Shown: positions 1,684 through 63,707 of the stretch, in pieces
How the letters are laid out: every line of letters starts with the position of its first letter
Numbering within the stretch: position 1 is the stretch's first letter
Sequence record: MZ560701
Reading direction: 5' to 3' (one strand)
Source of the DNA: Escherichia phage vB_EcoM_TU01
DNA length: 64,000 bases
Position numbers and translations under genes: made by a program
The notes under the pieces: model-generated
Databases searched by the model: none
What the model was told of the DNA's origin: nothing
The model's input: only the letters and a program-made list of their open reading frames with translations

Positions 1684-1709
1684 CATAAATTAAAACAATA
1701 GGAACAAAA

Positions 1710-2012: not shown

Positions 2013-2014
2013 CA

Positions 2015-2066: not shown

Positions 2067-2069
2067 AAA

Positions 2070-3186: not shown

Positions 3187-3192
3187 GGTTAT

Positions 3193-4250: not shown

Positions 4251-4254
4251 AGTA

Positions 4255-4306: not shown

Positions 4307-4311
4307 ATCAA

Positions 4312-4770: not shown

Positions 4771-4778
4771 AGGTAAAC

Positions 4779-5321
4779 ATGAGAAAAGCACTACTCGCTG
4801 GTCTATTTGCTCTTTCGTTATCAGCACATAGCTCCGAGCATACTTTTAGTAATGTCCAACTCGATAACTTGAATTATGCTTATCAGTTTGGGGAACAGTT
4901 TTCTAAGGACGGAAAATTTAAAACGCATGAAAATATGCATAAGAAAGGACTTGGATACATAATGGCCGCAATACTATGGCAGGAATCATCTGCCGGTATT
5001 AATCTTAAAGATAAGAAAGGTCACCATGCGTATGGAATGTTCCAAAATTATCTACCAACAATGAGGGCAAGAATTAACCAGCTTGGTTATAATATGACTG
5101 ATGCCCAAATTAAGAAAATGCTATCTAAGCGGTCTAATTCAGCCAGATGGGCTTATATCGAATTTTCTTATTGGTTAAATATACATAATGGGGATATAAG
5201 AAAAGCTATATCCTCATATAACGCGGGATGGAAGACAAGTGCTGGAAGTAAATATGCTTCTGAAGTCCTAGAAAAGGCCAATTACCTTAAATCAAATAAA
5301 CTACTGGAAATAAAAGAATGA
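4779..5321 (+). CDS. secreted protein, possible lytic transglycosylase-like fold (LWQESSAG...GMFQ)
   Basis: N-terminal signal peptide MRKALLAGLFALSLSAHS; E-S and G-hMFQ motifs resemble SLT domains. Confidence 0.55.
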   Translation: MRKALLAGLFALSLSAHSSEHTFSNVQLDNLNYAYQFGEQFSKDGKFKTHENMHKKGLGYIMAAILWQESSAGINLKDKKGHHAYGMFQNYLPTMRARINQLGYNMTDAQIKKMLSKRSNSARWAYIEFSYWLNIHNGDIRKAISSYNAGWKTSAGSKYASEVLEKANYLKSNKLLEIKE

Positions 5322-5665
5322 CCAAAATGTTGGCTTTAATAGTTGGCTTGGTTTCATTTAACGCTCTTGCTAATACTACATATACTGATATAACGGAGTA
5401 TACAAACAGAACGGCGTCTGATTATTGTGGTCAAAGTCAAGAGTGTAAAGTAGATTTTTCACAAAAATTGTTATATGCGTATAAAGACGGAGAAAAAGAT
5501 GGGGCGTCTAGTAGGTTCAAGGCGTCTACCTTAATTAAAAGATACTATAAAAAATGGCAAATATTAGAATGCTCGGTGGCGGAACCTAAAGATAAGGCAG
5601 CATGCAATTCTATGGTGGACCGTCTAGTTGACTCTTATAATAGAGGACTTGCAGCAAGTGATTAA
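5318..5665 (+). CDS. secreted hypothetical protein (signal peptide, Cys-containing)
   Basis: MTKMLALIVGLVSFNALA leader; ATGA overlap. Confidence 0.5.
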   Translation: MTKMLALIVGLVSFNALANTTYTDITEYTNRTASDYCGQSQECKVDFSQKLLYAYKDGEKDGASSRFKASTLIKRYYKKWQILECSVAEPKDKAACNSMVDRLVDSYNRGLAASD

Positions 5666-6125
5666 AAACTATATCAAGGGCGATATTGTCGCCCTGTTTT
5701 CTAAAGGTAATAATATCGCTCATGGGTGTAATTGTTTTCATACAATGGGCGCCGGTGTGGCAGGACAATTAGCAAAGGCTTATCCAAAAATTCTAGAAGC
5801 TGATAAACTTCAAACCGAATTCGGAGACGAGTCTAAACTCGGGACTTATTCGGTTTATGAAAAATATTTTAAGACCCATAAAGCTTATTGCTTTAATCTT
5901 TATACGCAGTTTGAGCCGGGACCTAATTTTGAGTACTCTGCTTTAATGAATTGTATAATAGAATTAAATGAATTCGGAAAGAATAAGATAACAAAGCCTG
6001 TAATTTATATGCCAAGAATTGGTGCAGGTATTGGTGGTGGAAACTGGGATGTCATCGAAGAGATTTTAGATACGTATTCCACTAAACTAGAAATTGTGAT
6101 TGTTGATTGGGAACCATTATTATGA
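5658..6125 (+). CDS. macro-domain protein (ADP-ribose binding/processing fold), probable GTG start
   Basis: IKNYIKGDIVALFSKGNNIAHGCNCFHTMGAGVAGQL ... IGAGIGGGNW; no in-frame ATG upstream of the domain; GAGGA 10 nt before GTG 5658. Confidence 0.65.
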   Translation: MIKNYIKGDIVALFSKGNNIAHGCNCFHTMGAGVAGQLAKAYPKILEADKLQTEFGDESKLGTYSVYEKYFKTHKAYCFNLYTQFEPGPNFEYSALMNCIIELNEFGKNKITKPVIYMPRIGAGIGGGNWDVIEEILDTYSTKLEIVIVDWEPLL

Positions 6126-6334
6126 ATATACATTATCCACATCCATATGACCCAAAGAATAAGGCAGTAATTATTCGTCAATGGGAACGAATTTGTCGTA
6201 CCAAATGCCCAATTAATAGTCCACATGATGTAGATAAAGACTACATCGGAACATTCGTTGAATATACCTTTATTGATAAGAAAGGCCGTAAACAACATGT
6301 AGAAGAATATTGCTTAAAGGTGACATGGCTATGA
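6122..6334 (+). CDS. hypothetical protein
   Basis: ATGA overlap with macro-domain stop. Confidence 0.4.
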   Translation: MNIHYPHPYDPKNKAVIIRQWERICRTKCPINSPHDVDKDYIGTFVEYTFIDKKGRKQHVEEYCLKVTWL

Positions 6335-6537
6335 GTCAAACAAAAATTCTTACAGGTGCTAAATGCGAAAAATGCGAATGGCCTGTAGTTTTTGCTTTAT
6401 GCAATGACGAAATGGCTTGTGATTTTGATTATTGGTGTTACTGTTCGAACAAAGGTTGTAGCAATCATAAAGGTGAAGGGTTTTACTCAGGATTTTACCC
6501 TTACCCAGATTTCGTTAAAGAAGGTGAACCTAAATGA
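6331..6537 (+). CDS. Cys-rich small protein (possible Zn-binding)
   Basis: CEKCEW...CNDEMACDFDYWCYCSNKGC. Confidence 0.4.
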   Translation: MSQTKILTGAKCEKCEWPVVFALCNDEMACDFDYWCYCSNKGCSNHKGEGFYSGFYPYPDFVKEGEPK

Positions 6538-6716
6538 AATTAACTAAAGAAGAGAAAGCTAAACTGTTTGAACTTATTCATGACCTATTGGATGAGCAAG
6601 CAGCCACCAATGCGTACGATGAATATGCTCCTTTAACAGATGAAGAATATCAAGCATTGATGGAATCATTTGACAGGAAAGAACAAGAACTCATTGACTA
6701 CGTGAATTCACTATAA
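6534..6716 (+). CDS. hypothetical acidic protein
   Basis: ATGA overlap. Confidence 0.4.
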   Translation: MKLTKEEKAKLFELIHDLLDEQAATNAYDEYAPLTDEEYQALMESFDRKEQELIDYVNSL

Positions 6717-6725
6717 GGGACTCTT

Positions 6726-7307
6726 ATGGCTAGTTTAATTTTTACATATGCCGCTATGAACGCTGGTAAGTCTGCTTCATTACTTACTGCCGCACATAAC
6801 TATAAAGAACGTGGCATGGGTGTATTAGTTCTTAAACCGGCTATTGATACTCGCGATTCAAAAGGTGAAATAGTCTCTCGTATTGGTATTCGTCAGGACG
6901 CCAATATAATTACAAAAGACATGGATATCTTTGAATTCTATAAATGGGCTGCAGCACAAAAGGATATTCATTGTGTATTTGTTGACGAAGCTCAGTTCTT
7001 AACTACTGAAAAGGTGTATCAACTTAGTCGTATTGTTGACGTATACAATGTGCCGGTAATGGCATATGGACTACGAACAGATTTTAAAGGTAATCTATTT
7101 GAAGGTTCTCAAGCATTAATGGCTATTGCCGATAAGCTTGTTGAACTTAAAGGTGTCTGTCATTGTGGTAAAAAGGCCACAATGGTAGCTAGAGTCACGG
7201 AAGACGGACTTCCAATTACAGATGGCAGTCAAATTGAAATTGGTGATACCGATAGATATGTGTCATTATGCCGGAAGCATTGGAATGATTTGACAGGGTT
7301 GTTATAA
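6726..7307 (+). CDS. tk: thymidine kinase
   Basis: P-loop AMNAGKSASLL, FVDEAQF, C-terminal CHCGKKATMVARV...LCRKHW zinc ribbon; matches T4 Tk. Confidence 0.93.
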   Translation: MASLIFTYAAMNAGKSASLLTAAHNYKERGMGVLVLKPAIDTRDSKGEIVSRIGIRQDANIITKDMDIFEFYKWAAAQKDIHCVFVDEAQFLTTEKVYQLSRIVDVYNVPVMAYGLRTDFKGNLFEGSQALMAIADKLVELKGVCHCGKKATMVARVTEDGLPITDGSQIEIGDTDRYVSLCRKHWNDLTGLL

Positions 7308-7334
7308 ATACTAATATCTAACCAAGAGGTATAT

Positions 7335-7547
7335 ATGCAGCAATTAAACGAAAGACAACTTCGTAATCTTACTGTAACCCAATTGGATGAAATCCGAAGA
7401 GAATTAGGACATTCTATTTCTCATTTAAACGAGGATATCCGTCAAACTGGTTCTAAAGCTGATTATACACGCAAGCGCAAGCTGGAAAAATACCTCACAG
7501 ATGTTAAGGCCGTCCAAAGGCGAAAAATAAATACTGGCCAAAATTAA
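7335..7547 (+). CDS. hypothetical protein
   Basis: AGAGG RBS; ORF track. Confidence 0.45.
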
Positions 7548-7559
7548 CAGGAGGCCTAT

Positions 7560-7862
7560 ATGGCCTTAAGAGCGATAGCTGTCATGGCGATGCTGGGGTT
7601 TTTTGCAGCAACAACTCCTAACGTTGGTACTGCGTACACCGACCCATATTTTGATAACTTTATGGAATCAGGGATTAAAAACGTATATACTTTGTTTGAA
7701 ATTCAAAATGTCGAGAATTCTGAAAAATTCTATAAGTATATGGCAAAGCATTACAAAAATAGCCCCTGTGACGATGCATTTGAATGTCATGAACAAGGCA
7801 TAAAAACTGCCAGACAATTTGCCGAGTTCATGAAAATAAAATTAGAGCCTACATCTATCTAA
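7560..7862 (+). CDS. hypothetical protein with N-terminal hydrophobic leader
   Basis: MALRAIAVMAMLGFFAATTP; GGAGG RBS. Confidence 0.45.
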   Translation: MALRAIAVMAMLGFFAATTPNVGTAYTDPYFDNFMESGIKNVYTLFEIQNVENSEKFYKYMAKHYKNSPCDDAFECHEQGIKTARQFAEFMKIKLEPTSI

Positions 7863-7868
7863 TTTACT

Positions 7869-7898
7869 AGCCCCTTCCTTACGGTTGGGGCTTTTTTG
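7869..7898 (+). terminator. rho-independent terminator-like hairpin plus T-run
   Basis: AGCCCC...GGGGCT followed by TTTTTT. Confidence 0.5.
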
Positions 7899-7907
7899 CA
7901 TTTAGCA

Positions 7908-7958
7908 GTTTACTTCTCCTCAGGTTGTGTTATAGTAGTCCTTACTTACTAGAGGAGA
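7908..7958 (+). promoter_or_regulatory. early promoter/stem-loop (PeSL-like)
   Basis: GTTTAC 7908-7913; CTCCTCAGG...ACTAGAGGAG inverted repeat around TG-n-TATAGT. Confidence 0.5.
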
Positions 7959-7963
7959 ACGTT

Positions 7964-8143
7964 ATGTCACGTAAAGAAAAAATTTCTAAGTTAATGTTTT
8001 TGATTGAAGAGTACGCTAATGCGGTATCTGATTGGGAAAATGCTCATGGTTGCGAAGATGGAGACATCGACATTAACAGAGCTATGAAAAAGATGGCCGA
8101 TGCCCACACCGAATTGCAAATGTATGTTAACGAGATTATGTGA
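7964..8143 (+). CDS. hypothetical protein
   Basis: GAGGAG RBS. Confidence 0.45.
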   Translation: MSRKEKISKLMFLIEEYANAVSDWENAHGCEDGDIDINRAMKKMADAHTELQMYVNEIM

Positions 8144-8150
8144 GGATATT

Positions 8151-8315
8151 ATGCTTTACGATTATACTGGAAAATCTGAAGACGGTGTACTTGAACTTTT
8201 ACCTGAAAGCGCTGAAGATGATATGGTAGTGATGTTTTGTGTTGGTTGTCAATCAATGCGTGATGAAATTTTTAAACGTGAACCAAGAAACTGTTGGCAC
8301 AGGAGCATGAGATGA
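8151..8315 (+). CDS. hypothetical protein (MLYDYTG... family)
   Basis: Paralogue of 8407-8622 (MLYD...EDGV..LE.LPE). Confidence 0.4.
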   Translation: MLYDYTGKSEDGVLELLPESAEDDMVVMFCVGCQSMRDEIFKREPRNCWHRSMR

Positions 8316-8407
8316 TTTATTATCTTGAACCTTGGGCTTGGTTAACAATGGCTGTAGGACCTGTTTTAATTGGTTTATTCTTTTCATGGTTAGCGAGGAA
8401 ACTGTAA
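8312..8407 (+). CDS. 31-aa hydrophobic micropeptide (candidate)
   Basis: MIYYLEPWAWLTMAVGPVLIGLFFSWLARKL; ATGA and TAATG overlaps with flanking genes. Confidence 0.3.
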   Translation: MIYYLEPWAWLTMAVGPVLIGLFFSWLARKL

Positions 8408-8622
8408 TGTTATATGACCCAAGCGGNNNTTNTGAAGATGGTGTGATTGTTCTGGAGCCTGAGCATCCAGTTGGTGATGTATATCGCNCNGTTGAAGTAT
8501 GCGAATGTAATTTCGTTGAAGGTAATACTGGCGGAATTTCCATTGAGCAAGATGATGATGTTATTTACCTGGATGCAAGCCAAGTAGAAGCTCTTTATAG
8601 CATTTTAAAACACAATCGGTAG
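8407..8622 (+). CDS. hypothetical protein (MLYDPS... family)
   Basis: Paralogue of 8151-8315. Confidence 0.4.
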   Translation: MLYDPSXXXEDGVIVLEPEHPVGDVYRXVEVCECNFVEGNTGGISIEQDDDVIYLDASQVEALYSILKHNR

Positions 8623-8660
8623 TTTACGTCTTGGTAGGACTATGATATAGTAATCCTACC
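8622..8660 (+). promoter_or_regulatory. early promoter/stem-loop (PeSL-like)
   Basis: GTTTAC 8622-8627; stem GGTAGGA/TCCTACC flanking TATGATATAGT. Confidence 0.5.
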
Positions 8661-8679
8661 AAAACAAATGGAGAACAAA

Positions 8680-8790
8680 ATGAAACTTTTGCTTATCGCT
8701 TATGTTGTAGTACAATACAATTATCCGATGTTTACTTATAACATGGTAAACGGCATAGTGAATCTTATTGAAACGAGTATGGTAAAATGA
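8680..8790 (+). CDS. small hypothetical ORF (36 aa)
   Basis: GGAGAA RBS. Confidence 0.3.
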   Translation: MKLLLIAYVVVQYNYPMFTYNMVNGIVNLIETSMVK

Positions 8791-8966
8791 CCCGTGAACA
8801 AGCTAATAAATTGATGGACCTTATCCATGACTTACGTGAAGCCGATTCAGATTTGAATGATGTAGCTTATCATGCGGTAAATGATAACGGAGACTTTTAT
8901 GAAAATCAGGTTGATGCTTGCCAGAATGCTTTGGTGAATTTTGTTGAAACTTTAATTGGTGAATAA
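8787..8966 (+). CDS. small hypothetical acidic protein (59 aa)
   Basis: ATGA overlap. Confidence 0.35.
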   Translation: MTREQANKLMDLIHDLREADSDLNDVAYHAVNDNGDFYENQVDACQNALVNFVETLIGE

Positions 8967-8967
8967 T

Positions 8968-9498
8968 ATGAAAACTGTAATTGAAACAACCGAGTTGTTT
9001 GGTGATTTATGTATCGAAAAACGTGGNNATGTGTATGTTCTGACACAAGAAGATGATGCTGCTACTATTCTTCCTATGGAACTGGACAAGATTTTGAAAC
9101 TCAATCCACCCGGCCATGCATCTGTAATTAACATTAATGAAGACCTTCAAGTTCGTTTTTATCACGGACTTTATAGTGGGGTTAATATCGAAACTGAAGA
9201 CGAATGTTTTTCTATTAATAATTGGAAAACATTCGTCGCTAAAGTGAAAGAATTCATGGAATCTGAAACAGCCAAAAAGGCCAAACTTCAATGGGCTAAA
9301 TGCCGTAATGCTTTTATTACAAATCAGGACCGCCCTGACTATACAACAGTCCTAGGCGTTAATCCTTCGTATGAAGATGGTGATGTCGTAGTTATTCGTC
9401 AAATTGATGACCTTCGTCAACATATCATTACATTAGACAAAGATGAAGCAGTTGCTCTTAAAGCTTATCTTGATTCTATTATCCCGACTTTGAAATAA
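8968..9498 (+). CDS. hypothetical protein
   Basis: ORF track, start refined to ATG 8968. Confidence 0.5.
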   Translation: MKTVIETTELFGDLCIEKRXXVYVLTQEDDAATILPMELDKILKLNPPGHASVININEDLQVRFYHGLYSGVNIETEDECFSINNWKTFVAKVKEFMESETAKKAKLQWAKCRNAFITNQDRPDYTTVLGVNPSYEDGDVVVIRQIDDLRQHIITLDKDEAVALKAYLDSIIPTLK

Positions 9499-9507
9499 GG
9501 AATTATT

Positions 9508-9981
9508 ATGATTATCAATGAAAACTCTTGGCACTTTAAAATTTATGCCGCGTTCAATAGTACATGGAATCGTCCGAAAACGTTGTGTGCTTATTTTTGG
9601 AAAACGTTAATCCCNGTATTGGCTGTTTCAATTATTGGATTTGCGATTTTAGCAGGTGCCGTAATCATTGGCCAGGAAATTTTAACTANATTCTTTGTTT
9701 TTAGCAGTCTATGGACATTAGTTCCGGCCTCAATTGGTGTAGGCATTTTAANNGTAGCAGTCATGGCTCTTATTGCTGTCGGGTTGGTAATTGGCCCGTC
9801 TTGGTTGTTAGACAAATATAACGACAGAAAATATTATAAAGAAATTGAGTTCATTGCACAAAACCAAGAACGAATTAAAAATGGACTTGAGCCTATTGAA
9901 CGTAAGAAATCATTAATAGGTGAATACCTTAAAGCTCGTAAAGAAAAAGTCTGTCCTACTCTTGAATATAAGGCTAAATGA
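9508..9981 (+). CDS. membrane protein (multiple TM segments)
   Basis: hydrophobic stretches LAVSIIGFAILAGAVIIG, VMALIAVGLVIGPSWLL. Confidence 0.5.
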   Translation: MIINENSWHFKIYAAFNSTWNRPKTLCAYFWKTLIXVLAVSIIGFAILAGAVIIGQEILTXFFVFSSLWTLVPASIGVGILXVAVMALIAVGLVIGPSWLLDKYNDRKYYKEIEFIAQNQERIKNGLEPIERKKSLIGEYLKARKEKVCPTLEYKAK

Positions 9982-23693: not shown

Positions 23694-23933
23694 ATGGCCC
23701 AAGAATTAGANNNNNNNNNNNNNNNNNNNNNNNNNNNNNNNNNNNNNNNNNNNNNNNNNNNNNNNNNNNNNTATGACATTTTAACAGATGCTATTACTGT
23801 TAGTTGTGGTGGAAANNNNNNNNNNNNNNNNNNNACTGAAAACAAATACCCAATCTATAAAGGCATCTTTGATATGGGTGTTGATATTAGNNNNNNNNNN
23901 NNNNNNNNNNNNNNNNNNNNNNNNNNNAAATAA
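23694..23933 (+). CDS. hypothetical protein, mostly N-masked
   Basis: ORF spans three N runs; only fragments readable. Confidence 0.25.
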   Translation: MAQELXXXXXXXXXXXXXXXXXXXXXYDILTDAITVSCGGXXXXXXXTENKYPIYKGIFDMGVDIXXXXXXXXXXXXXK

Positions 23934-35832: not shown

Positions 35833-36468
35833 ATGAAAACTACTCCTATTACTATCGCTATTGACGCAATCATAAAACAAGCTTCTTCTTTGGCCGCTAT
35901 GGCCAAAGTAATTAGTCAAAACCCTGCTCGTTATAATGCTATTCTAGAAACTCTTCGACGCCCAGGACTTAGNAATTANGAAAGCCGAGTAATTATTACA
36001 GGTGTTGGTAAGAATGCTAATATTGCAACTAAAGCTTCTGAGACATTTGCTTCACTCGGTATCCCGAGTATGTACTTGAACACCGGGCATTATTCTCACG
36101 GTGATGCAGGATTCATTGCGCCTAATGATGTGTTGATTCATATTAGTCGTTCTGGTAAAACTGAAGAAATGATAGGCGTTGCTAAGCATCTTAAAATGAT
36201 TCGTCCGAACGTCAAACAGATTCTGTTGCATTGTAACCCAGACATTCCACAAGAAAATGAAGCCCTTTTTGATTACTCTTTCTGTACAGGCATCGCAGTA
36301 GAGGTTGATGAGAATTCTCTGGCTCCGACTATGTCCACTACATTGTTGTTAGCGCTTATCGATACTTTTGCTATCAACCTTTCGTCTGAGCGTGGATTTA
36401 CCTCTAATGACTTCCTTAAGTTCCACCCTGGTGGTGCACTAGGTGCCATGTTACGAGGCGAACAATGA
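35833..36468 (+). CDS. SIS-domain sugar-phosphate isomerase (KpsF/GutQ/KdsD-like, no CBS domains)
   Basis: VIITGVGKNANIATKASETFASLGIPSMYLNTGHYSHGDAGFIAPNDVLIHISRSGKTEEM is a canonical SIS domain. Confidence 0.8.
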   Translation: MKTTPITIAIDAIIKQASSLAAMAKVISQNPARYNAILETLRRPGLXNXESRVIITGVGKNANIATKASETFASLGIPSMYLNTGHYSHGDAGFIAPNDVLIHISRSGKTEEMIGVAKHLKMIRPNVKQILLHCNPDIPQENEALFDYSFCTGIAVEVDENSLAPTMSTTLLLALIDTFAINLSSERGFTSNDFLKFHPGGALGAMLRGEQ

Positions 36469-36649: not shown

Positions 36650-38335
36650 ATGAAAAAAGCTGTTATTCTTGGTGCTGGACTGGCAACTCGTTTGTATCCA
36701 ATAACGCATCATATTCCTAAGGTGCTTGTTAACTATAAACAAGACACTATTCTGAGCAATTTGTATACAATTTATTCTGACCTTGGCGCAGATGAAATTA
36801 TTGTAGTAGTTCATTCAAAATTTGCTGAAACTGTTCGAGCTTATTGTGAGCAAGAAGGGTTCAATGTGACTATTCGTACAGTTGATGAAGCGTATGGTTC
36901 TGCTTATGCTCTTGCTAAATTACACAAAGATTTAGACGGCCATAATGTAATTGTTAACTGGTGTGATATTATTCCTGATTTTGGTTCATGGTCTTGGAAT
37001 GTTAACGCAATCTATGTTAAGGGTGATGAATGTCGATATAATTTCGACGGTGAAAATATCACTAACGTAGGTTCAACAGGTGGTAATGTTGTAGGAATTT
37101 ATCAGTTCAAAGACTGGGAATTCTATATGGGTTCTACTGATGAGGAAATTCATGAATACTGCAAAGGACGTGATTTCGTAGAATTCCTTTACGGCAGCGC
37201 ATTCAATAAATCAGAGCTTATGAATCTAATTGATTTAGGTGATATGCCTAAACTTGAAAAAGCTCATGAAGTTCGTGAACTTAATCGTAGTTTTAATGCA
37301 GTTGAAATTGGTGAAGAAACTGTAACTAAATTCGCATTAACCGAACAGGGTCGAGCTCTTCAGAAAGATGAGATTTCATGGTATCTTAAAGTGAAATCAG
37401 ATTCAGTTCCTCAGTTAGTTTCTGTTAATGAAAATAACTTTGAAATGGAACGCATTAAAGGTAAGCCGGCATTTGAATATATTAAATCCAAATCGAGTCT
37501 TGCTCGTCCACAAATTGTTGATGCAATTTTAGATGCACTGAAATTCAGCACAGACACTTATTTTGTAAGTCCTGAAACTGTTCGTCGTGATTTCACTAAA
37601 GAATTCTATACGAAAGTTATTGATCGTTGTGAAAGTATTCAACCATTGATTGATTCATTTGGTAAAATCACACATGTGAACTACACTAAGATTGGACGTC
37701 TGAAGCCAATGCTGAAACAAGCTTTAGAACACCTTATTCGTTATCATAACCGTTCTCAGGGACAGTACTCTGTTATTCATGGCGACCCGAACTTCAGTAA
37801 TACTATGATTACTGATAACGGCGAAGTCAAGTTTATCGACCCTCGTGGATATTTTGGTGAAACCAAGATTTACGGGCCAAAATTGTACGATGAAGCTAAA
37901 GTGCTTTATGCTGTTTCAGGTTATGATGAATTCAACGCTAATCCGACCTGGGGACAGTTTACTATTGACGAAACAACTTGTAATGTGACTATTAACATCA
38001 ATCCATTAATTTACAAATATGGAAAGCTGAGTTCGTTTAACGAGTATCATCATTTGGCCGTAGCAATTATCTGGATTGCATTAGGTGGTTATTTCAAGAA
38101 TAATCCACTTAAAGCGGTAGCCGCATATTATAAAGGTATGGAACTTCTGACTAAGCAATTACGTAACATGGGCCGTGTACTTCAAGACGGCTCTATTAGT
38201 TATGACGTAGCAGAACCTGTAACGGCTACTCTGATTACAAAAAATCCTGGTAAATGGGTACTAACTGATAAAGAAACTGGTGTTTCCTATCGTCCAATCG
38301 GTGGCGATATCACTCATCAATGGGAACGAATCTAA
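36650..38335 (+). CDS. bifunctional sugar-1-phosphate nucleotidyltransferase (N-term, LicC/RmlA-like) + APH/choline-kinase-fold kinase (C-term)
   Basis: N-term MKKAVILGAGLATRLYPIT...KVLV (G-x-G-T-R-L-x-P); C-term SVIHGDPNFSNTMITDNGEVKFIDPRGYFG (H-G-D-x4-N and I-D-x-R). Confidence 0.8.
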   Translation: MKKAVILGAGLATRLYPITHHIPKVLVNYKQDTILSNLYTIYSDLGADEIIVVVHSKFAETVRAYCEQEGFNVTIRTVDEAYGSAYALAKLHKDLDGHNVIVNWCDIIPDFGSWSWNVNAIYVKGDECRYNFDGENITNVGSTGGNVVGIYQFKDWEFYMGSTDEEIHEYCKGRDFVEFLYGSAFNKSELMNLIDLGDMPKLEKAHEVRELNRSFNAVEIGEETVTKFALTEQGRALQKDEISWYLKVKSDSVPQLVSVNENNFEMERIKGKPAFEYIKSKSSLARPQIVDAILDALKFSTDTYFVSPETVRRDFTKEFYTKVIDRCESIQPLIDSFGKITHVNYTKIGRLKPMLKQALEHLIRYHNRSQGQYSVIHGDPNFSNTMITDNGEVKFIDPRGYFGETKIYGPKLYDEAKVLYAVSGYDEFNANPTWGQFTIDETTCNVTININPLIYKYGKLSSFNEYHHLAVAIIWIALGGYFKNNPLKAVAAYYKGMELLTKQLRNMGRVLQDGSISYDVAEPVTATLITKNPGKWVLTDKETGVSYRPIGGDITHQWERI

Positions 38336-38721
38336 TGCACCGTGTAGAAAACATGCTTAATCTTTGTTTTGATGTCGATGATTGTATAACAGAGTGGAAT
38401 AACAATCGTGATTACGTGAACTTCAAGCCGGACGTCGAAATGGTGAATGCCATTAATGCCCTGTATGATGCAGGGCACACAATAACGCTTTACACTGCTC
38501 GCGGTATGAAGTCAGTAGGTCCTGGTCGTATAGCAATTGACATTCTCCCAAGTCTTATTCAGAACTTGGCAAACATTGGCTTGAAGTACCATAATTTGCT
38601 AACACATAAACCAGTATATGATTGGATTATCGACGACAAAGCTATGCGTCCTGACGAATTCAAAGCTCTTATGAATAAAGGCGAATTCGAAACATTTAAA
38701 TCATATAAACCGAATCTATAA
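38335..38721 (+). CDS. small HAD-superfamily phosphatase (KdsC-like size)
   Basis: LCFDVDDCIT (motif I DxDx[TV]), ITLYTARG (motif II), YDWIIDDK (motif IV); start 38335 or 38353. Confidence 0.7.
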   Translation: MHRVENMLNLCFDVDDCITEWNNNRDYVNFKPDVEMVNAINALYDAGHTITLYTARGMKSVGPGRIAIDILPSLIQNLANIGLKYHNLLTHKPVYDWIIDDKAMRPDEFKALMNKGEFETFKSYKPNL

Positions 38722-38775: not shown

Positions 38776-39936
38776 ATGAATACTTTTAAAATCGGAACGA
38801 ATTTTGATTTAGCTCTTCTTGATAAAATCGTAGAGCTCAATAAAACTTATCCTAATAGCTTGATAAACGAAGTATATGGCTCTACAAGAGAAATGGCTTT
38901 TGTAGCAGCCAGACCTGATTTTAGGCTTCCTGACGTTGACAAAAAGATGTTAGAAGATTACGTTAAACGTTGTAACGAATTAGGTATTTGCTTTAACTAT
39001 ACACTCAACACGATAAATCCTGGTTCAAAAAGAGAACTAGTTGAGTGGAAGAAGAAAGCTATTCAGGACTATGTTCAGTATCTTTGGTCAATAGGCGTAT
39101 GGCGTATTACTATCGCTAACCCTGTTGTTATGGAAATTGTTCGTGAAGTCAATAAAGACATTGAGATTGAAGTTTCAACAATTTTACATGTCGATGCTGT
39201 AACTCAAATCAAATACTTACATGACCAGTATAATATCAAAAAGGTCTGCTGTGGAATTCATAAGAACCGTTCAGTTTCTTTCCTGAAGCGTGCAGCAGAG
39301 TTTTGCAATAAGAACAATATAATATTTGAAGTTCTTGTAAATGAGTTCTGTTCTAATGCTGGTAAAGGGTATACAACACATTGTAGCTATCGTGACTCTT
39401 GCTATATTTTCCATAGTACTGATGTTACAGCTGATGATGCTAAATCCTTAAATGGATATCCTATGCAGCACTGTATTAAAGCTCGTGATACAGACCCATT
39501 TAACTGGTTGAGAACTCGTTTTGTTCGTCCACAAGATTTGAAACTTTATAATGATATTGGTATCACTCAATTTAAAGTTTCGGGACGTACAGGTAGCACC
39601 GACTACATTTTGAAAGTTCTTGAAGCTTATGCTTCTGAAAAGTTTGAAGGTAATTTGTTGGAATTGTGGAAGCCTTTAGAGACCATTTTCACTCTTGAAA
39701 ATGAGACCGAGTTTTCACATACGGTAAATATTGAAACCTCTTTGTTAGACGGCTTTTTAGAAAAAAGGTGGTTCAGACATCCGGATTTCGATTGTGCTAA
39801 TGAAATCTGCGGGACGACGTGTACATATTGTGAAAGATATTATAAACGTCAGTTATCTAAAAATGGGTTATCAGAAAATTCTATATCTATTATTGATATA
39901 ACTAACTCTGACGACGCTTTGAGGTACCCAGAATGA
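38776..39936 (+). CDS. Cys-rich enzyme of unknown function (possible U32-like TIM barrel; C-terminal CGTTCTYC Cx3Cx2C cluster)
   Basis: 386 aa; FEVLVNEFCSNAGKGYTTHCSYRDSC and CANEICGTTCTYC; family assignment tentative. Confidence 0.5.
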   Translation: MNTFKIGTNFDLALLDKIVELNKTYPNSLINEVYGSTREMAFVAARPDFRLPDVDKKMLEDYVKRCNELGICFNYTLNTINPGSKRELVEWKKKAIQDYVQYLWSIGVWRITIANPVVMEIVREVNKDIEIEVSTILHVDAVTQIKYLHDQYNIKKVCCGIHKNRSVSFLKRAAEFCNKNNIIFEVLVNEFCSNAGKGYTTHCSYRDSCYIFHSTDVTADDAKSLNGYPMQHCIKARDTDPFNWLRTRFVRPQDLKLYNDIGITQFKVSGRTGSTDYILKVLEAYASEKFEGNLLELWKPLETIFTLENETEFSHTVNIETSLLDGFLEKRWFRHPDFDCANEICGTTCTYCERYYKRQLSKNGLSENSISIIDITNSDDALRYPE

Positions 39937-40109
39937 TTTCTAGAAAAACTTTTAACCACCAACTTAATGAAGAGATTTTGACTATAAAAATTAACAGCAA
40001 CGAACAAATTCTTAAAAAGGCCCTTATGGGCCTGTTTGAAACTAAAGCGGCTAAAGCGATTAAAGAAACCTGTTCAACTAGAATACTATGCCGACGCATT
40101 CCTTCATAG
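39933..40109 (+). CDS. small hypothetical protein (58 aa)
   Basis: ATGA overlap. Confidence 0.3.
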   Translation: MISRKTFNHQLNEEILTIKINSNEQILKKALMGLFETKAAKAIKETCSTRILCRRIPS

Positions 40110-40172
40110 TGTCCTTGGAAGTATTGATGCCGAAGCTCTACGTTATATCAACATCGCTAAGAAATTCAAATA

Positions 40173-40196
40173 AGCTTTATGAATTGAGTATATAAT
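40173..40196 (+). promoter_or_regulatory. middle-promoter-like element (MotA-box-like AGCTTTA, TATAAT 11 nt downstream) for gene 42
   Basis: AGCTTTA 40173-40179, TATAAT 40191-40196. Confidence 0.45.
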
Positions 40197-40215
40197 AAAC
40201 TGTATTGAGGTAAAC

Positions 40216-40932
40216 ATGGGAAAACATAACACAATGAAATATATTAAAGCCGCAGATTTTCAATCCGCATTTAAAGCTGTCAATCGTGAAATTTTAGAAA
40301 ACCCAGAATTCGTAACTGATTCTCGTATTGGACGTTGTAATGAAATTGGGTCTATGACAGTAGTTGTTGACACTCCATCATCATTCAAAATGACCGACCC
40401 ACGTATTAACCGCATCTCTTATGAATATGCCGAAGATTTCTGGAAATTTATGATTTCTGGCGGNACTGANGCAGAAGAAGCATTTAAGGCATATCCTAAT
40501 GTCGCTAAATTTATTTCTAAACCAAAATCAGACGCTTTGCCTGCGAACTTCAACACTTTCTATGGTCCTCGCATTGCGGCCCAATTACCAGCTCTTCTAA
40601 AAGAACTTAAAGAGAAGCCTAACTCTCGAAGAGTTGTGTTCCAAATTCTTGAAAGTTCTGATCAGGCTTTGCTTGATTCGGACGAAACGCTTGAATATCC
40701 ATGTACTGACTCAGTGACTTATTATATTCGTGATGGTAAGCTTTATACCCACTGTCATATGCGTTCCCAGAACTGTGCTGTTGTTATGCAGTTGGATTTT
40801 TATCTCCAAGGAAAATTACTTCATTATATCGCTAAAGAATGCGGTGTAGAAGTTGGTGATTATACTCATACCATGGTAAGTGCCCATGTGTTTGAACGTG
40901 ATTTTGATTATGTTAAAGGATTCCTTGACTAA
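40216..40932 (+). CDS. 42: dCMP hydroxymethylase (thymidylate-synthase fold)
   Basis: 238 aa; CTDSVTYYIRDGKLYTHCHMRSQNCAVVMQLDF parallels T4 gp42 catalytic-Cys region; between 43 and uvsX. Confidence 0.85.
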   Translation: MGKHNTMKYIKAADFQSAFKAVNREILENPEFVTDSRIGRCNEIGSMTVVVDTPSSFKMTDPRINRISYEYAEDFWKFMISGXTXAEEAFKAYPNVAKFISKPKSDALPANFNTFYGPRIAAQLPALLKELKEKPNSRRVVFQILESSDQALLDSDETLEYPCTDSVTYYIRDGKLYTHCHMRSQNCAVVMQLDFYLQGKLLHYIAKECGVEVGDYTHTMVSAHVFERDFDYVKGFLD

Positions 40933-41831
40933 TGGCTATTTTCCGCGTACCTATCTTGAGTATGCGGTCTTATGAAACCGGACAGTATGCTATCCTTAAG
41001 GATGGCAACTTCCAACTTCATTTGCACCGTGCTAATCCGGGTGATGTGATTACATATCCACGTAATGCATCTGATATTAAAGAATGTGAACGTCTTTTCC
41101 CAGAATTTAAGTTTGTTCCATTATGGTATAAAGATAACGCGTATAACACTCGTAAATATTTCTGGTCTGAAAATGAATTTGTGGTTGATTCATTAATTGC
41201 TTATTATGATTGTGATTTTCTAATCACAGATATCACTGGATATGACGGAGCTTTTGATGTAGAATTCAATTTCAATATCACTGCAGACCCTAATAAACCA
41301 CGTTTTTATATTGACGAATTCTTAAAAACCGACATGTTGTCGGTTAATCGTTCACTTCAAACTACTGTGTTGAATGAACGTCAAAAAGAAGTGCTGGTTA
41401 ACGCTGGTGCAGATGGTAATAAGATTATCGTAACCCAGAAAGTTATACGTCCTTCCATCATGCAGCGTCTTGTAGGTGATTTGGCTCCTATTCATCTAGA
41501 TGGTATTTTTCATCCATTTCGAATTAGTGACCCGTGCTATCGTTTTGAACAAGTGGTTGAATGTGCAATTCAATTAGGTCAACCGCTTTATGTAACCGAT
41601 CCAAATAATAGTTTCGATAGAAATAAGTATCCTGAAGAAGCGCTGATTCGAATTTTTAAACCAACTAAAACTGAGTACTATCAAATTCTTAAAGGACGGC
41701 CGAAGATTCAATATTTCGAAAATCCTGAAGAAGTATTCCATCCAGGTCTTGGCGAGTTCATCTACTTTAATGCTTTAATTTCTTCACCGTATAATATACC
41801 TAAATACGAAGATGTCGTAATCGAGGAATAA
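40932..41831 (+). CDS. hypothetical protein at the T4 beta-glucosyltransferase locus (no resemblance to T4 beta-gt)
   Basis: 299 aa; TAATG overlap with gene 42; no motif I could assign. Confidence 0.5.
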   Translation: MAIFRVPILSMRSYETGQYAILKDGNFQLHLHRANPGDVITYPRNASDIKECERLFPEFKFVPLWYKDNAYNTRKYFWSENEFVVDSLIAYYDCDFLITDITGYDGAFDVEFNFNITADPNKPRFYIDEFLKTDMLSVNRSLQTTVLNERQKEVLVNAGADGNKIIVTQKVIRPSIMQRLVGDLAPIHLDGIFHPFRISDPCYRFEQVVECAIQLGQPLYVTDPNNSFDRNKYPEEALIRIFKPTKTEYYQILKGRPKIQYFENPEEVFHPGLGEFIYFNALISSPYNIPKYEDVVIEE

Positions 41832-41832
41832 A

Positions 41833-42381
41833 ATGGCTAAAATTATTTTAGTAGATGGCCCGGATAATGCTGGTAAAACAACTTTCATTAATGATATAAT
41901 GGAAATTAGTGAAAGATATGTAAAGATTGATTTCCCTAAACGAACAGTTGATGGACGTTTCGATGTTAAGTCTCGAAATGAAGTTGGCTGTTTCGAAACG
42001 ATGTTGAATTATTTAGACCCTACTAAGATTTATCTGTTAGACCGTGGATATATTAGTAACTGGGTTTATGGACGTATTCGACAAGATGCGGACTCGGTTC
42101 TTGACGTTTATGAACAGGATTATGTTCGTCTTTGCCAAAACCATGATGTGTTCACAATTATTTTAACACGTAACGAAATGACTGAAAGTTTTGAAGACGA
42201 CCTTATTACTTTGTCTTCATTCGGTTTTAATACAGTCATTTCACATTTTGAAGAGTTTGCAATTCATAACAAAATCCAAACGTATCAATTACTTAATCAT
42301 GATGGTGCTAACAAAGTTATAGGATTTAATGCAAGCGAACGTAATTATTTGATTACAGAAATTATCAAATGGGCTCGTTAA
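41833..42381 (+). CDS. P-loop nucleoside/nucleotide-kinase-like protein
   Basis: MAKIILVDGPDNAGKTTFI (Walker A), LLDRGYISNWVYG (DR motif typical of dNK/dNMP kinases). Confidence 0.55.
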   Translation: MAKIILVDGPDNAGKTTFINDIMEISERYVKIDFPKRTVDGRFDVKSRNEVGCFETMLNYLDPTKIYLLDRGYISNWVYGRIRQDADSVLDVYEQDYVRLCQNHDVFTIILTRNEMTESFEDDLITLSSFGFNTVISHFEEFAIHNKIQTYQLLNHDGANKVIGFNASERNYLITEIIKWAR

Positions 42382-42402
42382 GAGCCTGTTTAAAGTTTTT
42401 AA

Positions 42403-42481: not shown

Positions 42482-43654
42482 ATGTCTGATTTAAAATCTC
42501 GTCTGATTAAAGCTTCTACTTCTAAAATGACTGCAGACTTGACTAAGTCTAAGCTGTTTAATAATCGTGATGAAGTCCCTACTCGTATTCCGATGTTGAA
42601 TATTGCATTAGGTGGTGCACTGAATGCCGGGTTGCAATCAGGCTTAACTATTTTTGCTGCTCCTTCTAAACACTTTAAAACGTTGTTTGGACTGACCATG
42701 GTTGCAGCATATATGAAGAAATATAAAGATGCAATTTGTTTGTTCTATGATTCAGAATTTGGTGCTTCAGAATCTTATTTTCGTTCAATGGGTGTTGATT
42801 TAGACCGTGTAGTTCATACTCCGATTCAATCTGTCGAACAACTTAAAGTTGATATGACTAATCAGCTTGACGCGATTGAACGTGGTGATAAAGTTATTAT
42901 CTTTATCGATTCAATCGGTAATACTGCATCTAAGAAAGAAACTGAAGATGCGTTGAACGAGAAAGTTGTAGGTGATATGTCTCGTGCTAAGGCACTTAAA
43001 TCTCTGTTCCGCATTGTGACTCCTTATCTGACTATTAAAGATATTCCATGTGTTGCAATCAACCATACAGCAATGGAAATCGGCGGACTATATCCTAAAG
43101 AGATTATGGGCGGTGGTACAGGTATTCTTTACTCTGCTAACACTGTATTCTTTATCTCTAAACGTCAGGTTAAAGAAGGTACAGAATTGACCGGNTANGA
43201 NTTCACGTTGAAAGCAGAAAAATCTCGTACAGTTAAAGAGAAATCTACTTTCCCGATCACGGTTAATTTTGATGGCGGTATTGACCCATTCAGTGGCTTG
43301 TTAGAAATGGCAACTGAAATTGGTTTTGTAGTTAAGCCTAAAGCCGGTTGGTACGCTCGCGAATTCCTTGACGAAGAAACAGGCGAAATGATTCGTGAAG
43401 AAAAATCATGGCGTGCTAAAGCTACTGATTGTGTAGAATTCTGGGGACCATTGTTTAAACACAAACCTTTCCGAGATGCAATTGAAACTAAATATAAACT
43501 AGGTGCTATCTCTTCTATTAAAGAAGTTGATGACGCTGTTAATGACCTTATTAATTGCAAAGCAACAACTAAAGTTCCGGTTAAAACTTCTGATGCTCCG
43601 TCTGCAGCAGATATAGAAAACGACCTTGACGAAATGGAAGATTTCGATGAATAA
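42482..43654 (+). CDS. uvsX: RecA-like recombinase UvsX
   Basis: MSDLKSRLIKASTSKMTADLTKSKLFNNRDEVPTRIPMLNIALGGALNAGLQSGLTIFAAPSKHFKT matches T4 UvsX. Confidence 0.95.
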   Translation: MSDLKSRLIKASTSKMTADLTKSKLFNNRDEVPTRIPMLNIALGGALNAGLQSGLTIFAAPSKHFKTLFGLTMVAAYMKKYKDAICLFYDSEFGASESYFRSMGVDLDRVVHTPIQSVEQLKVDMTNQLDAIERGDKVIIFIDSIGNTASKKETEDALNEKVVGDMSRAKALKSLFRIVTPYLTIKDIPCVAINHTAMEIGGLYPKEIMGGGTGILYSANTVFFISKRQVKEGTELTXXXFTLKAEKSRTVKEKSTFPITVNFDGGIDPFSGLLEMATEIGFVVKPKAGWYAREFLDEETGEMIREEKSWRAKATDCVEFWGPLFKHKPFRDAIETKYKLGAISSIKEVDDAVNDLINCKATTKVPVKTSDAPSAADIENDLDEMEDFDE

Positions 43655-60260: not shown

Positions 60261-60683
60261 ATGGCTTTTAAAGGTTTTGAAGTTGGTAAGAAATATCGTA
60301 TTATCAAAGGACAGGAAGATAATTTCTTGAGACTTCTTAATACGACTGGTAAACGTCTTAATACTAATCTGCATACTNCTTTATTGTCNAAAGATTTTAT
60401 TGTAGAAGAGATGATTGGTTACGGCGTTTCGATTATTGCCGNNNNNNNNNNNNNNNNNNNNNNNNNNNTCATTAGTATGCAAGGTGATATTCTGCTTTAT
60501 GGTGCAGAATTTAAATTCTTTGAAGAAGTTCCGGAACCAGATACAGCTGTCGATTTCAAAAAAGGCTCTGTAGAATTTGTTGATGGTTCGGTGATCGTAT
60601 CAGGCGATGTGGTCATTACAGTTAAAAGTGAACAAGGGCGTTTGGCTGCAATTGATGCACTTCAGAAAATTAAATTTAAATAA
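60261..60683 (+). CDS. hypothetical protein (contains N-masked block)
   Basis: ORF track. Confidence 0.45.
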   Translation: MAFKGFEVGKKYRIIKGQEDNFLRLLNTTGKRLNTNLHTXLLXKDFIVEEMIGYGVSIIAXXXXXXXXXXISMQGDILLYGAEFKFFEEVPEPDTAVDFKKGSVEFVDGSVIVSGDVVITVKSEQGRLAAIDALQKIKFK

Positions 60684-62606: not shown

Positions 62607-63707
62607 ATGAAAGTTATGTTTATCCCATCTCGNGCAGTCCCATTTAATCCTGACCGTGTACAAGGTGGNCTTGAAGCAGTACATTTAAATGTGTTGAAAT
62701 ATCTTGTGTCCATCGGTGCTGATATTGATTATATCGGCTTTGATAATGACACGTTTGGTGACTGGAAAGTTAAACACCATCCTGTTGGTCATCTGACTAA
62801 ATTCAGTCTAGGTATGAGTTATACTATGGCTCGTAAGATTGTTGAACTAGCNGGCATCCATGAATACGATTTTGTTGTTACTATGGAACCGACTAAACTA
62901 ACCGTTCAGGCAATTAAAGACGCAGGTCTCTCTAAAGTTCATAAGAATTTTATGGCAACACCATTTGAACCGGTATCTCGTGGCATTGTTCAAATTTGGG
63001 ACCANACTATTCAAATTCATAAGAATGGTGGTAAGAGTTATGCTCCTACTAAAGCCTTCCGTGAATTTGAACGCAAATATTGTTATATGACTTCAGGTCT
63101 GACTGACAAAATTGATTATGATTATTGGCGAGCAAATCCGTTGTTTGAAGCCGAAGATTATCCGGTTATTTGTTTGANTGAGAAACCNGAAGTTCTTCCG
63201 GCNACTGATNTGATTATTAGTGCACAACGTTATGACACTAAAATGCGTCGTACTGATGTTGCTCTTGAAGCGATTAAAGCACTAGGCGAAAATGGTGTAG
63301 GATACTGTCCTAGTAAATGGGCACCACCAGCTAAATATCCTGTTATTATTGATGCTCCACACAGTGAAATCATGGAACGTCTTAAAACAGCTAAAGCACT
63401 TATTAATACGTGTCCTGACACAGGTACNGTAGAGAATAGTTCTATTGAAGCCATCTCTAAAGGTGTCCCTGTAATCCAGTTAGTTTTTAAGGATTATCCT
63501 CATGCGACATTCGAATACGACCCAGATACTGTGCGTGTAGAAATTGATTCCTCTACTCCTAAGAAAGAAGTAGTTGCGCTTTACACAAAAGCTGTATTAG
63601 AATTCACTGACACATACGAAGCTCGAGTTAAACGNGCTGAAGCAGTATGGAAGAAGTATAATCGAGATGCAGTTGTTGCGATGTGGGATAAAATCTTCAC
63701 AGCGTAA
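62607..63707 (+). CDS. GT-B-fold glycosyltransferase (GT4-like), candidate DNA sugar transferase
   Basis: N-terminal MKVMFIPS..PFNPDRVQGGLEAVHLNVLKYL and C-terminal ENSSIEAISKGVPVI resemble GT4 motifs; N-containing. Confidence 0.6.
   Translation: MKVMFIPSXAVPFNPDRVQGXLEAVHLNVLKYLVSIGADIDYIGFDNDTFGDWKVKHHPVGHLTKFSLGMSYTMARKIVELXGIHEYDFVVTMEPTKLTVQAIKDAGLSKVHKNFMATPFEPVSRGIVQIWDXTIQIHKNGGKSYAPTKAFREFERKYCYMTSGLTDKIDYDYWRANPLFEAEDYPVICLXEKXEVLPXTDXIISAQRYDTKMRRTDVALEAIKALGENGVGYCPSKWAPPAKYPVIIDAPHSEIMERLKTAKALINTCPDTGXVENSSIEAISKGVPVIQLVFKDYPHATFEYDPDTVRVEIDSSTPKKEVVALYTKAVLEFTDTYEARVKXAEAVWKKYNRDAVVAMWDKIFTA

Follow-up and report, generated by a model that had tools for sequence, protein, structure and literature searches.

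Two genes at the beta-glucosyltransferase position of an RB69-like phage as probable parts of the base-side branch of arabinosyl-5-hydroxycytosine hypermodification

A stretch of 64,000 nucleotides from Escherichia phage vB_EcoM_TU01 (record MZ560701; the window in what follows) carries two open reading frames between a thymidylate-synthase homologue and uvsX, one of 299 aa (40932-41831) and one of 182 aa (41833-42381). In our judgement these are probably the last two genes of a dCMP 5-hydroxylase/glycosyltransferase/nucleotide kinase unit, which constitutes the base-side branch of arabinosyl-5-hydroxycytosine hypermodification in RB69-like phages. That RB69-type phages arabinosylate cytosine, how the hydroxylase acts and which roles are assigned to both genes is already known from publications of 2025-2026, and the same pathway is reportedly treated by He et al. 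in Nat Chem Biol 2026 and by Mahler et al. in Cell Host Microbe 2025. The pathway of RB69-like phages was described by Lee et al. (NAR 2026, PMC13326640), where the roles of transferase-1 and of the nucleotide kinase are computational assignments. The odd gene content of the pol-uvsX interval has likewise been on record since 2018, when it was described as highly plastic (Thomas et al. 2018).

The window belongs to a Mosigvirus (RB69-like), showing 97.5-98.4% identity to Mosigvirus genomes including HY126; phages JN02 and HY126 are about 98% identical to it. At the position of the two reading frames T4 has beta-gt and segA instead, and the 299-aa protein bears no similarity to T4 beta-gt (the best BLASTP match covers 23 residues at E 3.6), in agreement with the sequence-only reading, which had proposed that two non-homologous genes occupy the beta-gt locus. 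The unit and its putative signals are as follows.

40173-40196, + strand: T4-type middle-promoter-like site (MotA-box-like AGCTTTA, 11-nt spacer, TATAAT), as read from the sequence
40216-40932, + strand: dCMP 5-hydroxylase (5hodCMP synthase), thymidylate-synthase homologue at the T4 gene 42 position
40932-41831, + strand: 299-aa glycosyltransferase of predicted GT-B fold, family of RB69 gp46:47, DLP3 gp79 and Thanatos TH1_063
41833-42381, + strand: 182-aa P-loop nucleotide kinase of thymidylate-kinase fold, family of RB69 gp45 and DLP3 gp78
42367-42391, + strand: terminator-like hairpin and T-run overlapping the kinase stop codon (10-pair stem, 4 G-C pairs, T-rich tail)

The gene junctions of the trio are tightly packed. 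The site at 40173-40196, which we take to resemble the MotA-dependent promoters of T4, is the putative promoter of the three-gene unit; it was not called by a simple sigma-70 scan, and a GAGG is found at 40207-40210, 3' of it and 5' of the unit. The transcription unit probably ends at the hairpin at 42367-42391, which is a consensus match only.

The product of the first gene of the unit matches the Pfam family Thymidylat_synt (E 1.8e-15) and, over 238 aa, shares about 99% of its residues with the HY126 enzyme of known structure (PDB 9iqc/9ir2/9iqu), so the gene, which the sequence-only reading had treated as gene 42, does not encode a hydroxymethylase. In the alignment Cys146 is kept, Asp stands at N177 and Asn at ThyA D169; together with the ThyA fold these are the features of a 5hodCMP synthase. 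An alignment of seven ThyA homologues from phages and jumbo contigs, that of the window included, shows the diagnostic Asn in each, whereas T4 gp42 keeps Asp169. Asn-169 is the signature of flavin/O2-dependent dCMP 5-hydroxylases, this activity was demonstrated for the RB69 (gp48) and DLP3 orthologues, and RB69-type DNA carries arabinosyl-5-hydroxycytosine (PMC13326640). Since the upstream gene encodes a hydroxylase of the Asn-169 type, the acceptor base is 5-hydroxycytosine and not hydroxymethylcytosine. The earlier proposal of an alternative hmC-sugar transferase would therefore hold with regard to a sugar transferase, of predicted GT-B fold, but not with regard to the acceptor.

The 299-aa protein had been described as lacking a recognisable motif, and indeed no Pfam family was found at E<=0.1 (Glycos_transf_1 and Glyco_trans_4 being absent), nor any NCBIfam family; phmmer against PDB gave no family, and glycosyltransferases were absent among the PDB matches of a 67-sequence profile of its family. 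With these sequence-based routes empty, the putative fold was reached by structure prediction only. The predicted structure (pLDDT 95.1) consists of two alpha/beta domains of Rossmann-like type, separated by a cleft, and can be superposed on solved GT-B enzymes, as had been expected of a glycosyltransferase; its best structural neighbours are sucrose-phosphate synthase, MshA and tetrahydrobiopterin glucosyltransferase. Compared with GT4-type GT-B enzymes (sucrose-phosphate synthase 6kih, BshA 6n1x, PimA 2gej, MshA 3c4q) the protein shows 8-12% identity and is about 60-100 residues shorter. In its C-terminal half R197, K246 and H270-P271-G272 with E275 are invariant, and the EX7E spacing of the GT4 acidic motif is absent from the conserved H270-P-G-x-x-E275 segment. 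The model independently confirms, at the level of a predicted structure, the published computational assignment of the protein as a GT-B transferase. On the basis of fold, synteny and family distribution it would be the enzyme that attaches the first, base-proximal arabinose to 5-hydroxycytosine.

No substantive difference was found between this protein and RB69 gp46:47, DLP3 gp79, HY126 XAN60474 or Thanatos TH1_063, except that the RB69 reference record splits the transferase into ORF046c and ORF047c, whereas the window has one intact reading frame. The family HMM gave 157 and 256 bits for the two RB69 halves, 394 bits for DLP3 gp79 and 85 bits for RL38J1_215 of Rhizobium phage RL38J1, which has the SMRSYETG, DGN, FPxRxxD and DPN motifs in common with the family. 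RB69 gp46:47 and DLP3 gp79 are labelled 'arabinosyltransferase 1', and RL38J1 puts galactose, not arabinose, on 5-hydroxycytosine (PMC13326640). RL38J1_215 belongs to the same family although its phage attaches galactose; membership in the family therefore goes with the base that is glycosylated, whichever sugar is used. This extension of the family to a galactose-attaching phage is what the present analysis adds.

The 182-aa protein had been read as a thymidylate-kinase-like P-loop kinase. Its fold is Tmk-like, its closest folds being dTMP kinases, and it has the GxDxxGKT and FPxR motifs common to class-I TMPKs. The DR motif is also present, with Gly in place of the aromatic residue of DR[YHF]. 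Identity to thymidylate kinases (vaccinia A48R 2v54, S. tokodaii 2plr, T. thermophilus 5x7j) is 8-19%, the TIGR00041 score of 16 bits lies below the curated dTMP-kinase threshold of 83.25, and PF02223 (Pfam Thymidylate_kin) was not matched at E<=0.1; a jumbo-contig homologue gave only a 'faint' PF02223 match. Homologues are annotated as 'thymidylate kinase' in many records, and RB69 gp45 and DLP3 gp78 are labelled 'nucleotide kinase' (PMC13326640). The HY126 homologue is XAN60473. The genomic linkage suggests that modified dCMP, rather than dTMP, is the substrate. T4 gp1 (RB69 gp159) is likewise a P-loop NMP kinase feeding modified dCMP into the dNTP pool, and because RB69 gp159 already phosphorylates 5hodCMP (PMC13326640), a second 5hodCMP kinase looks redundant. 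A role as DNA-base kinase like 5-HMUDK was considered and rejected: the fold is Tmk-like, and phosphate activation is unneeded since the 5-OH attacks the UDP-sugar directly to give an ether-linked glycoside.

The hydroxylase-transferase-kinase trio occurs in about 345 phage records, in two jumbo-phage contigs and in Rhizobium phage RL38J1, the counts for the single genes (transferase 348, kinase 343, hydroxylase about 375) referring to nearly the same set. The synteny comparison that had been suggested for this locus supports the unit: the three genes are adjacent in 21 of the 22 fetched loci, which include the two jumbo-phage contigs and Dhakavirus with its permuted gene order, and in most cases the stop codon of one gene overlaps the start codon of the next. 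Wherever the transferase gene is carried and the fetched locus reaches far enough upstream, it adjoins the ThyA homologue. Morganella phage MP1 has an intact kinase, the hydroxylase, transferase and sugar genes being missing at this locus, and in RL38J1 a gp1-like and a Tmk-like kinase both stand near the module. A scan of viral contigs with the kinase profile gave just 17 loci, so that it is chiefly phages in GenBank that underlie the co-occurrence figures.

Genes for the sugar donor and for a second transferase are present in the window as well.

35833-36468, + strand: arabinose-5-phosphate isomerase, RB69 gp55 homologue (NCBIfam KpsF/GutQ E 2e-32, KdsD E 6e-31)
36650-38335, + strand: bifunctional sugar kinase/UDP-arabinose pyrophosphorylase, AfhE-like, RB69 gp52:53 (PHROG 4098 E 9e-295)
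38320-38721, + strand: HAD-type sugar-bisphosphate phosphatase, AfhF-like, RB69 gp51 (PHROG 1238 E 8e-43; function per PMC13326640)
62607-63707, + strand: second arabinosyltransferase, RB69 gp3/HY126 glycosyltransferase (E 5e-243 to PDB 9iqz/9ir0)

The isomerase is assigned to the first step of the sugar-donor branch (PMC13326640). The counterpart of RB69 gp52:53 is intact and its product matches Pfam NTP_transferase (E 8.5e-10), with weak kinase-domain matches at residues 308-409. The title of PDB 9iqz/9ir0 is 'phage HY126 glycosyltransferase (with UDP)'.

Taken in sequence, the pathway would begin with hydroxylation of dCMP at C5 by the ThyA homologue with flavin and O2, as shown for its orthologues. 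The 182-aa enzyme would then phosphorylate the modified deoxycytidylate, in the simplest case 5-hydroxy-dCMP to the diphosphate, feeding the dNTP pool; this step is proposed because modified-pyrimidine phages usually carry a dedicated NMP kinase alongside their ThyA homologue. The third step is suggested by the predicted fold, the synteny and the distribution of the family: the 299-aa enzyme would move D-arabinofuranose from UDP-Araf to the 5-hydroxyl, yielding the base-proximal alpha-arabinoside. The UDP-Araf would be supplied by the products of the neighbouring upstream genes for the isomerase and the AfhE-like and AfhF-like proteins. The transferase encoded at 62607-63707 would extend the sugar to a diarabinoside, which would make the phage DNA resistant to restriction and to CRISPR systems that target DNA. 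The locus would therefore replace T4 beta-gt functionally, though with another acceptor and another sugar: T4 beta-gt uses UDP-glucose and the 5-hydroxymethylcytosine provided by a gp42-type hydroxymethylase, the window transferase 5-hydroxycytosine and, as proposed, UDP-arabinofuranose. Both enzymes are of the GT-B fold (predicted for the window), that of T4 having 351 aa and a pI of 9.05 and that of the window 299 aa and a pI of 5.1. Which restriction, CRISPR and glycosylase defences can be evaded by a phage used in therapy depends on such cytosine modifications.

The order of glycosylation and replication could also be reversed, although we consider this unlikely. The 299-aa transferase would then arabinosylate free 5-hydroxy-dCMP, and the Tmk-fold enzyme would serve specifically to phosphorylate arabinosyl-5-hydroxy-dCMP, a nucleotide too bulky for the general dNMP kinase of the phage; the polymerase would incorporate the glycosylated dCTP analogue, only the second sugar would be added on DNA, and free 5-hydroxycytosine would never be exposed there. 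When free in DNA, 5-hydroxycytosine causes mutations and is attacked by base-excision glycosylases of the host, and masking it before incorporation would benefit the phage. To our knowledge, however, all characterised phage DNA glycosylation is post-replicative, and this would be the first case at the nucleotide level of which we know. The linkage and translational packing of the trio across distant lineages, permuted order included, would fit such a scheme, as would the coexistence in RB69 of a gp1-type kinase accepting 5hodCMP with a kinase of the 182-aa type, and likewise the two kinases of RL38J1; against it, MP1 keeps the kinase without any transferase. The nearest structures listed above use small phosphorylated or heterocyclic acceptors, and the members of the transferase family are acidic proteins (median pI 5.3, net charge -11) compared with the basic pI of T4 beta-gt, but pI is a weak proxy for a DNA or small-molecule acceptor, since DLP3 gp77, which acts on DNA with gp76, is also acidic (pI 5.7). 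The DLP3 transferases singly did not arabinosylate 5hoC-containing DNA, and the authors could not distinguish addition of the first sugar on the mononucleotide from addition on DNA (PMC13326640); this negative in vitro result, however, was mentioned there as unpublished ('data not shown') and may have a technical cause. Furthermore, co-expression of the hydroxylase and a gp1-type kinase in E. coli led to 5hodC in DNA (PMC13326640), therefore 5hodCTP is made and can be polymerised.

It is very improbable that the 299-aa protein is instead a UDP-pentose pyrophosphorylase forming the sugar nucleotide, with the true base glycosyltransferase encoded elsewhere. This possibility is raised by Thanatos TH1_063, 47% identical to the 299-aa protein (tblastn), which made UDP-xylose from UTP and xylose-1-phosphate in vitro and for which xylose transfer to plasmid DNA, dCMP or dCTP was not seen (PMC12838424). 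These acceptors, however, are without a 5-hydroxyl, so the missing transfer is uninformative, and TH1_063 is the sole candidate transferase of Thanatos, which is mono-arabinosylated (PMC13326640). The AfhE-like protein, moreover, already holds a nucleotidyltransferase domain, and HY126 AfhE is active as UDP-arabinose pyrophosphorylase according to He et al., as cited in PMC13326640. The predicted fold of the 299-aa protein is GT-B and not that of a nucleotidyltransferase, and a GT-B enzyme may form a UDP-sugar in a side reaction, by reversal or phosphorolysis, which would still imply a UDP-pentose site.

That the 182-aa protein is an ordinary kinase for dTMP or for dNMPs in general, or a relic with no part in cytosine modification, would agree with its closest folds, the common annotation, its intact state in MP1 without the rest of the cluster and the plasticity of the interval, but is very improbable, given that apart from MP1 it stands beside a 5-hydroxylase-type ThyA and a transferase in every fetched locus (even in jumbo contigs that are not Straboviridae-like), that its phage records essentially match those of the transferase (343 vs 348), that its score falls far short of the curated threshold for dTMP kinases, and that a kinase of the gp1 type, which takes care of dTMP in T4, is already present in these phages.

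The most interesting by-product of the analysis lies just outside the main finding, in the neighbouring gene.

38776-39936, + strand: U32-family protein, RB69 gp50 (Pfam Peptidase_U32 42.2 bits vs gathering score 22.4)

This protein may be an O2-independent cytosine hydroxylase and hence a candidate for another route to 5-hydroxycytosine. Pairwise similarity to E. coli RlhA, TrhP, UbiU and UbiV was not significant, the link to these proteins being made by the Pfam family model and local motifs only. The small reading frame between the U32 gene and the hydroxylase (the RB69 ORF049c slot) was considered as a degenerate chorismate mutase; this was unsupported, as it had no Pfam match and was not recruited in 5 jackhmmer rounds. 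In related phages a chorismate mutase is paired with the U32 protein, which is itself 79-86% identical across phage genera.

In vB_EcoM_TU01 the interval between the gene 42 position and uvsX, which in T4 carries the beta-glucosyltransferase gene, probably serves arabinosylation of 5-hydroxycytosine, with a 299-aa protein as the first transferase and a Tmk-fold kinase acting on modified dCMP. The relevant genes are the following:

40216-40932, + strand: ThyA homologue, 238 aa, upstream (Pfam Thymidylat_synt, E 1.8e-15)
40932-41831, + strand: 299-aa ORF
41833-42381, + strand: 182-aa ORF
42482-43654: UvsX, downstream (T4_UVSX_C, E 1e-38)
62607-63707, + strand: 366-aa ORF, RB69 gp3-type second arabinosyltransferase (E 5e-243 to PDB 9iqz; 9ir0 with UDP)

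The two central ORFs were recovered in the ORF list exactly where the sequence-only reading had placed them, and they are real genes; homologues of the 299-aa protein occur in 348 phage records and those of the 182-aa protein in 343. Genes in the T4 reference record run 43 - imm.1 - imm - 42 - b-gt - segA - uvsX - 40 - 41, therefore the earlier statement on synteny was correct: b-gt and segA of T4 are replaced here by the 299-aa and 182-aa ORFs. The ThyA stop and the 299-aa start overlap as TAATG, the next junction is TAA-A-ATG, and GAGG ribosome-binding sites are present. At the stop codon of the kinase gene, and overlapping it, lies a terminator-like hairpin, and a T4 middle-promoter-like site may be inferred upstream of the ThyA homologue. 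N bases are scattered over the whole window (well over a hundred isolated ones and several runs, at 23711-23771, 23816-23834, 23891-23927 and 60442-60468), which suggests a consensus or masked assembly; they turn residues of the hydroxylase (40464, 40470) and of UvsX (43195-43201) into X, and none lies inside the 299-aa and 182-aa ORFs.

Many Mosigvirus (RB69-like) genomes, JN02, GADS24 and HY126 among them, match the 3 kb around the locus at 97.5-98.4% identity. RB69 gp45 is 98.9% identical to the 182-aa kinase, and annotation of RB69 divides the counterpart of the 299-aa gene into ORFs 046c and 047c, each half being matched by the family HMM; this split is a sequencing error according to Lee et al. 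(PMC13326640). The RB69 polymerase-uvsX interval had already been described as containing a module of genes that lack T4 homologues, at the position of T4 b-gt and segA (Thomas et al. 2018). Since the 366-aa ORF, essentially identical to the solved 'phage HY126 glycosyltransferase', is the second arabinosyltransferase, the window holds both transferases of the pathway.

The ThyA homologue shares about 99% identity with PDB 9iqc/9ir2/9iqu, presumably the HY126 enzyme for whose crystal structure He et al. are cited. The alignment places Cys146, Asp at 177 and Asn at 169 in it, whereas T4 gp42 keeps Asp at position 169. Asn169 has been published as diagnostic for 5-hydroxylases (PMC13326640).

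When all fetched loci were scanned with HMMs, the hydroxylase, transferase and kinase genes stood next to each other in 21 of 22, in most cases with stop and start codons that overlap. The trio, with Asn169, is present in two jumbo-phage-like contigs, L004 (JGI, 355 kb; 1-9682) and L005 (GCA_040384225.1, 383 kb; 6426-9576), where the transferases are longer (346-381 aa). In both contigs a Flavodoxin_2 (flavin reductase-like) gene stands just upstream, and its product could provide reduced flavin for the hydroxylase; L004 additionally carries SIS-isomerase and APH-kinase genes. Thanatos also has the trio, and Dhakavirus IME341 (L008, 4773-6894) carries it in permuted order, kinase - hydroxylase - transferase, in a cluster having neither arabinose-5-phosphate isomerase nor U32 gene. 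The sole exception is Morganella phage MP1 (NC_031020; L020 / L027 20500-21030), where an intact kinase homologue is sited in the interval from the DNA polymerase gene to uvsX. Direct scanning of the first 100 kb of MP1 gave no isomerase, AfhE/F, U32, hydroxylase or transferase, all of which its genus-mate Rgz1 has at this site, and in a DNA search just a small part of the Rgz1 cluster had a match in MP1; the MP1 kinase is an orphan or else serves a role of its own.

Pfam and NCBIfam give no match to the 299-aa protein, in line with the earlier remark that it has no recognisable motif. Its structure model is confident (pLDDT 95.1, pTM 0.89) and has the GT-B glycosyltransferase fold, with which Foldseek concurs. 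No similarity to T4 beta-gt is seen at the sequence level, and proteins of the family are acidic, with a median pI of 5.3 against 9.05 for T4 b-gt. For the family 110 homologues were collected and 67 aligned. RL38J1_215 scores 85 bits with the family HMM and shares the conserved motifs; it comes from Rhizobium phage RL38J1, where galactose is attached to 5-hydroxycytosine (PMC13326640). What the family follows is therefore the accepting base, 5-hydroxycytosine, rather than the sugar, as expected of a base-proximal transferase.

The 182-aa protein bears out its description as a thymidylate-kinase-like P-loop kinase: the P-loop is present and PHROG 761 'thymidylate kinase' matches with E 2e-45 (model pLDDT 89). 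Its family profile gives weak matches to the thymidylate kinases of vaccinia, yeast, human and M. tuberculosis; in the alignment with vaccinia TMPK the P-loop of Tmk type (GxDxxGKT) lines up, as does the FPxR motif, and D70-R71 is invariant in the family. These motifs, together with a score of 16 bits where the curated dTMP-kinase threshold is 83, mark it as a predicted divergent Tmk-fold nucleotide kinase.

In the favoured pathway dCMP would be hydroxylated to 5hodCMP, upstream genes would supply UDP-Araf and subsequent sugars would be put on at the DNA level, as shown for orthologues; the 299-aa GT-B enzyme would join the first arabinose to the 5-hydroxyl and the Tmk-fold kinase would phosphorylate the modified dCMP. 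The main rival, rather improbable in our estimate, is that glycosylation takes place at the nucleotide level and the kinase works on the arabinosyl nucleotide. The tight packing of the trio, the negative DNA assay of the DLP3 transferases and the small-molecule acceptors of the transferase's structural neighbours agree with it, and the kinase would otherwise be redundant, as the gp1-type kinase already takes 5hodCMP; against it stand precedent and the demonstration that 5hodC enters DNA in E. coli. A minor alternative is that the 299-aa protein forms UDP-pentose, as reported for its 47%-identical Thanatos homologue TH1_063 (L007, 5995-6897), which in vitro converted UTP and xylose-1-phosphate to UDP-xylose, while the acceptors used in that study had no 5-hydroxyl group (PMC12838424); this published activity is at odds with the GT-B fold and with the transferase assignment. 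An ordinary dTMP kinase is likewise a minor alternative for the 182-aa protein, with its closest folds, those of dTMP kinases, on its side and the sub-threshold score against it.

Same-locus substitution by a new sugar transferase and a modified-nucleotide kinase, as the sequence-only reading supposed, is thus essentially the conclusion of the field and already published, not new; the base is 5-hydroxycytosine and not hmC.

Upstream of the hydroxylase lie two further ORFs:

38776-39936, + strand: 386-aa U32-family protein, RB69 gp50 (42 bits; gathering score 22)
39933-40173, + strand: small ORF separating the U32 gene from the hydroxylase, counterpart of RB69 ORF049c (79 aa)

The U32 protein, which Lee et al. 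give only as 'sugar or heterocycle reductase', without discussion (PMC13326640), is the most conserved of the arabinosylation cluster: 221 phage records are each at least 80% identical, and identity across genera is 79-86%, compared with 62-74% for gp41, 46-72% for the transferase, 37-72% for the kinase and 64-67% for the polymerase (full length in Rgz1, about 44% of its length in Thanatos). None of the Acinetobacter and Rhizobium phages having the hydroxylase carries the U32 protein. A type-II chorismate mutase gene (Pfam CM_2, 46 bits) adjoins the U32 gene in 57 phage records outside Mosigvirus and in 11 fetched loci (e.g. L026, 16667-18400); in Thanatos both stand downstream of the kinase, still side by side (L007, 7462-8852). 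The E. coli U32 proteins RlhA (23S rRNA 5-hydroxycytidine synthase), TrhP (tRNA 5-hydroxyuridine) and UbiU/UbiV are associated with O2-independent hydroxylations, the oxygen donor being prephenate, shown for UbiU/V and proposed for the others (PMC10990095). Prephenate is the product of chorismate mutase, and the ThyA-type hydroxylase requires O2. The conservation, this pairing, the family chemistry and the O2 requirement together lead us to propose, at roughly even odds and by analogy, that the phage U32 protein may provide an anaerobic, prephenate-dependent route to 5-hydroxycytosine complementing the O2-dependent hydroxylase, a duality parallel to UbiI/H/F and UbiU/V and to TrhO and TrhP. 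The searchable literature did not yield this link, which He et al. or Mahler et al. could already have proposed.

The small ORF occupies the slot of the chorismate mutase gene, yet it is not detectable as one. Its frame differs between the window (58 aa plus a second frame), RB69 (79 aa) and HY126 (40 aa) through 1-nt length changes in short A or T runs, with gene decay, a site prone to slippage and sequencing error as possible explanations.
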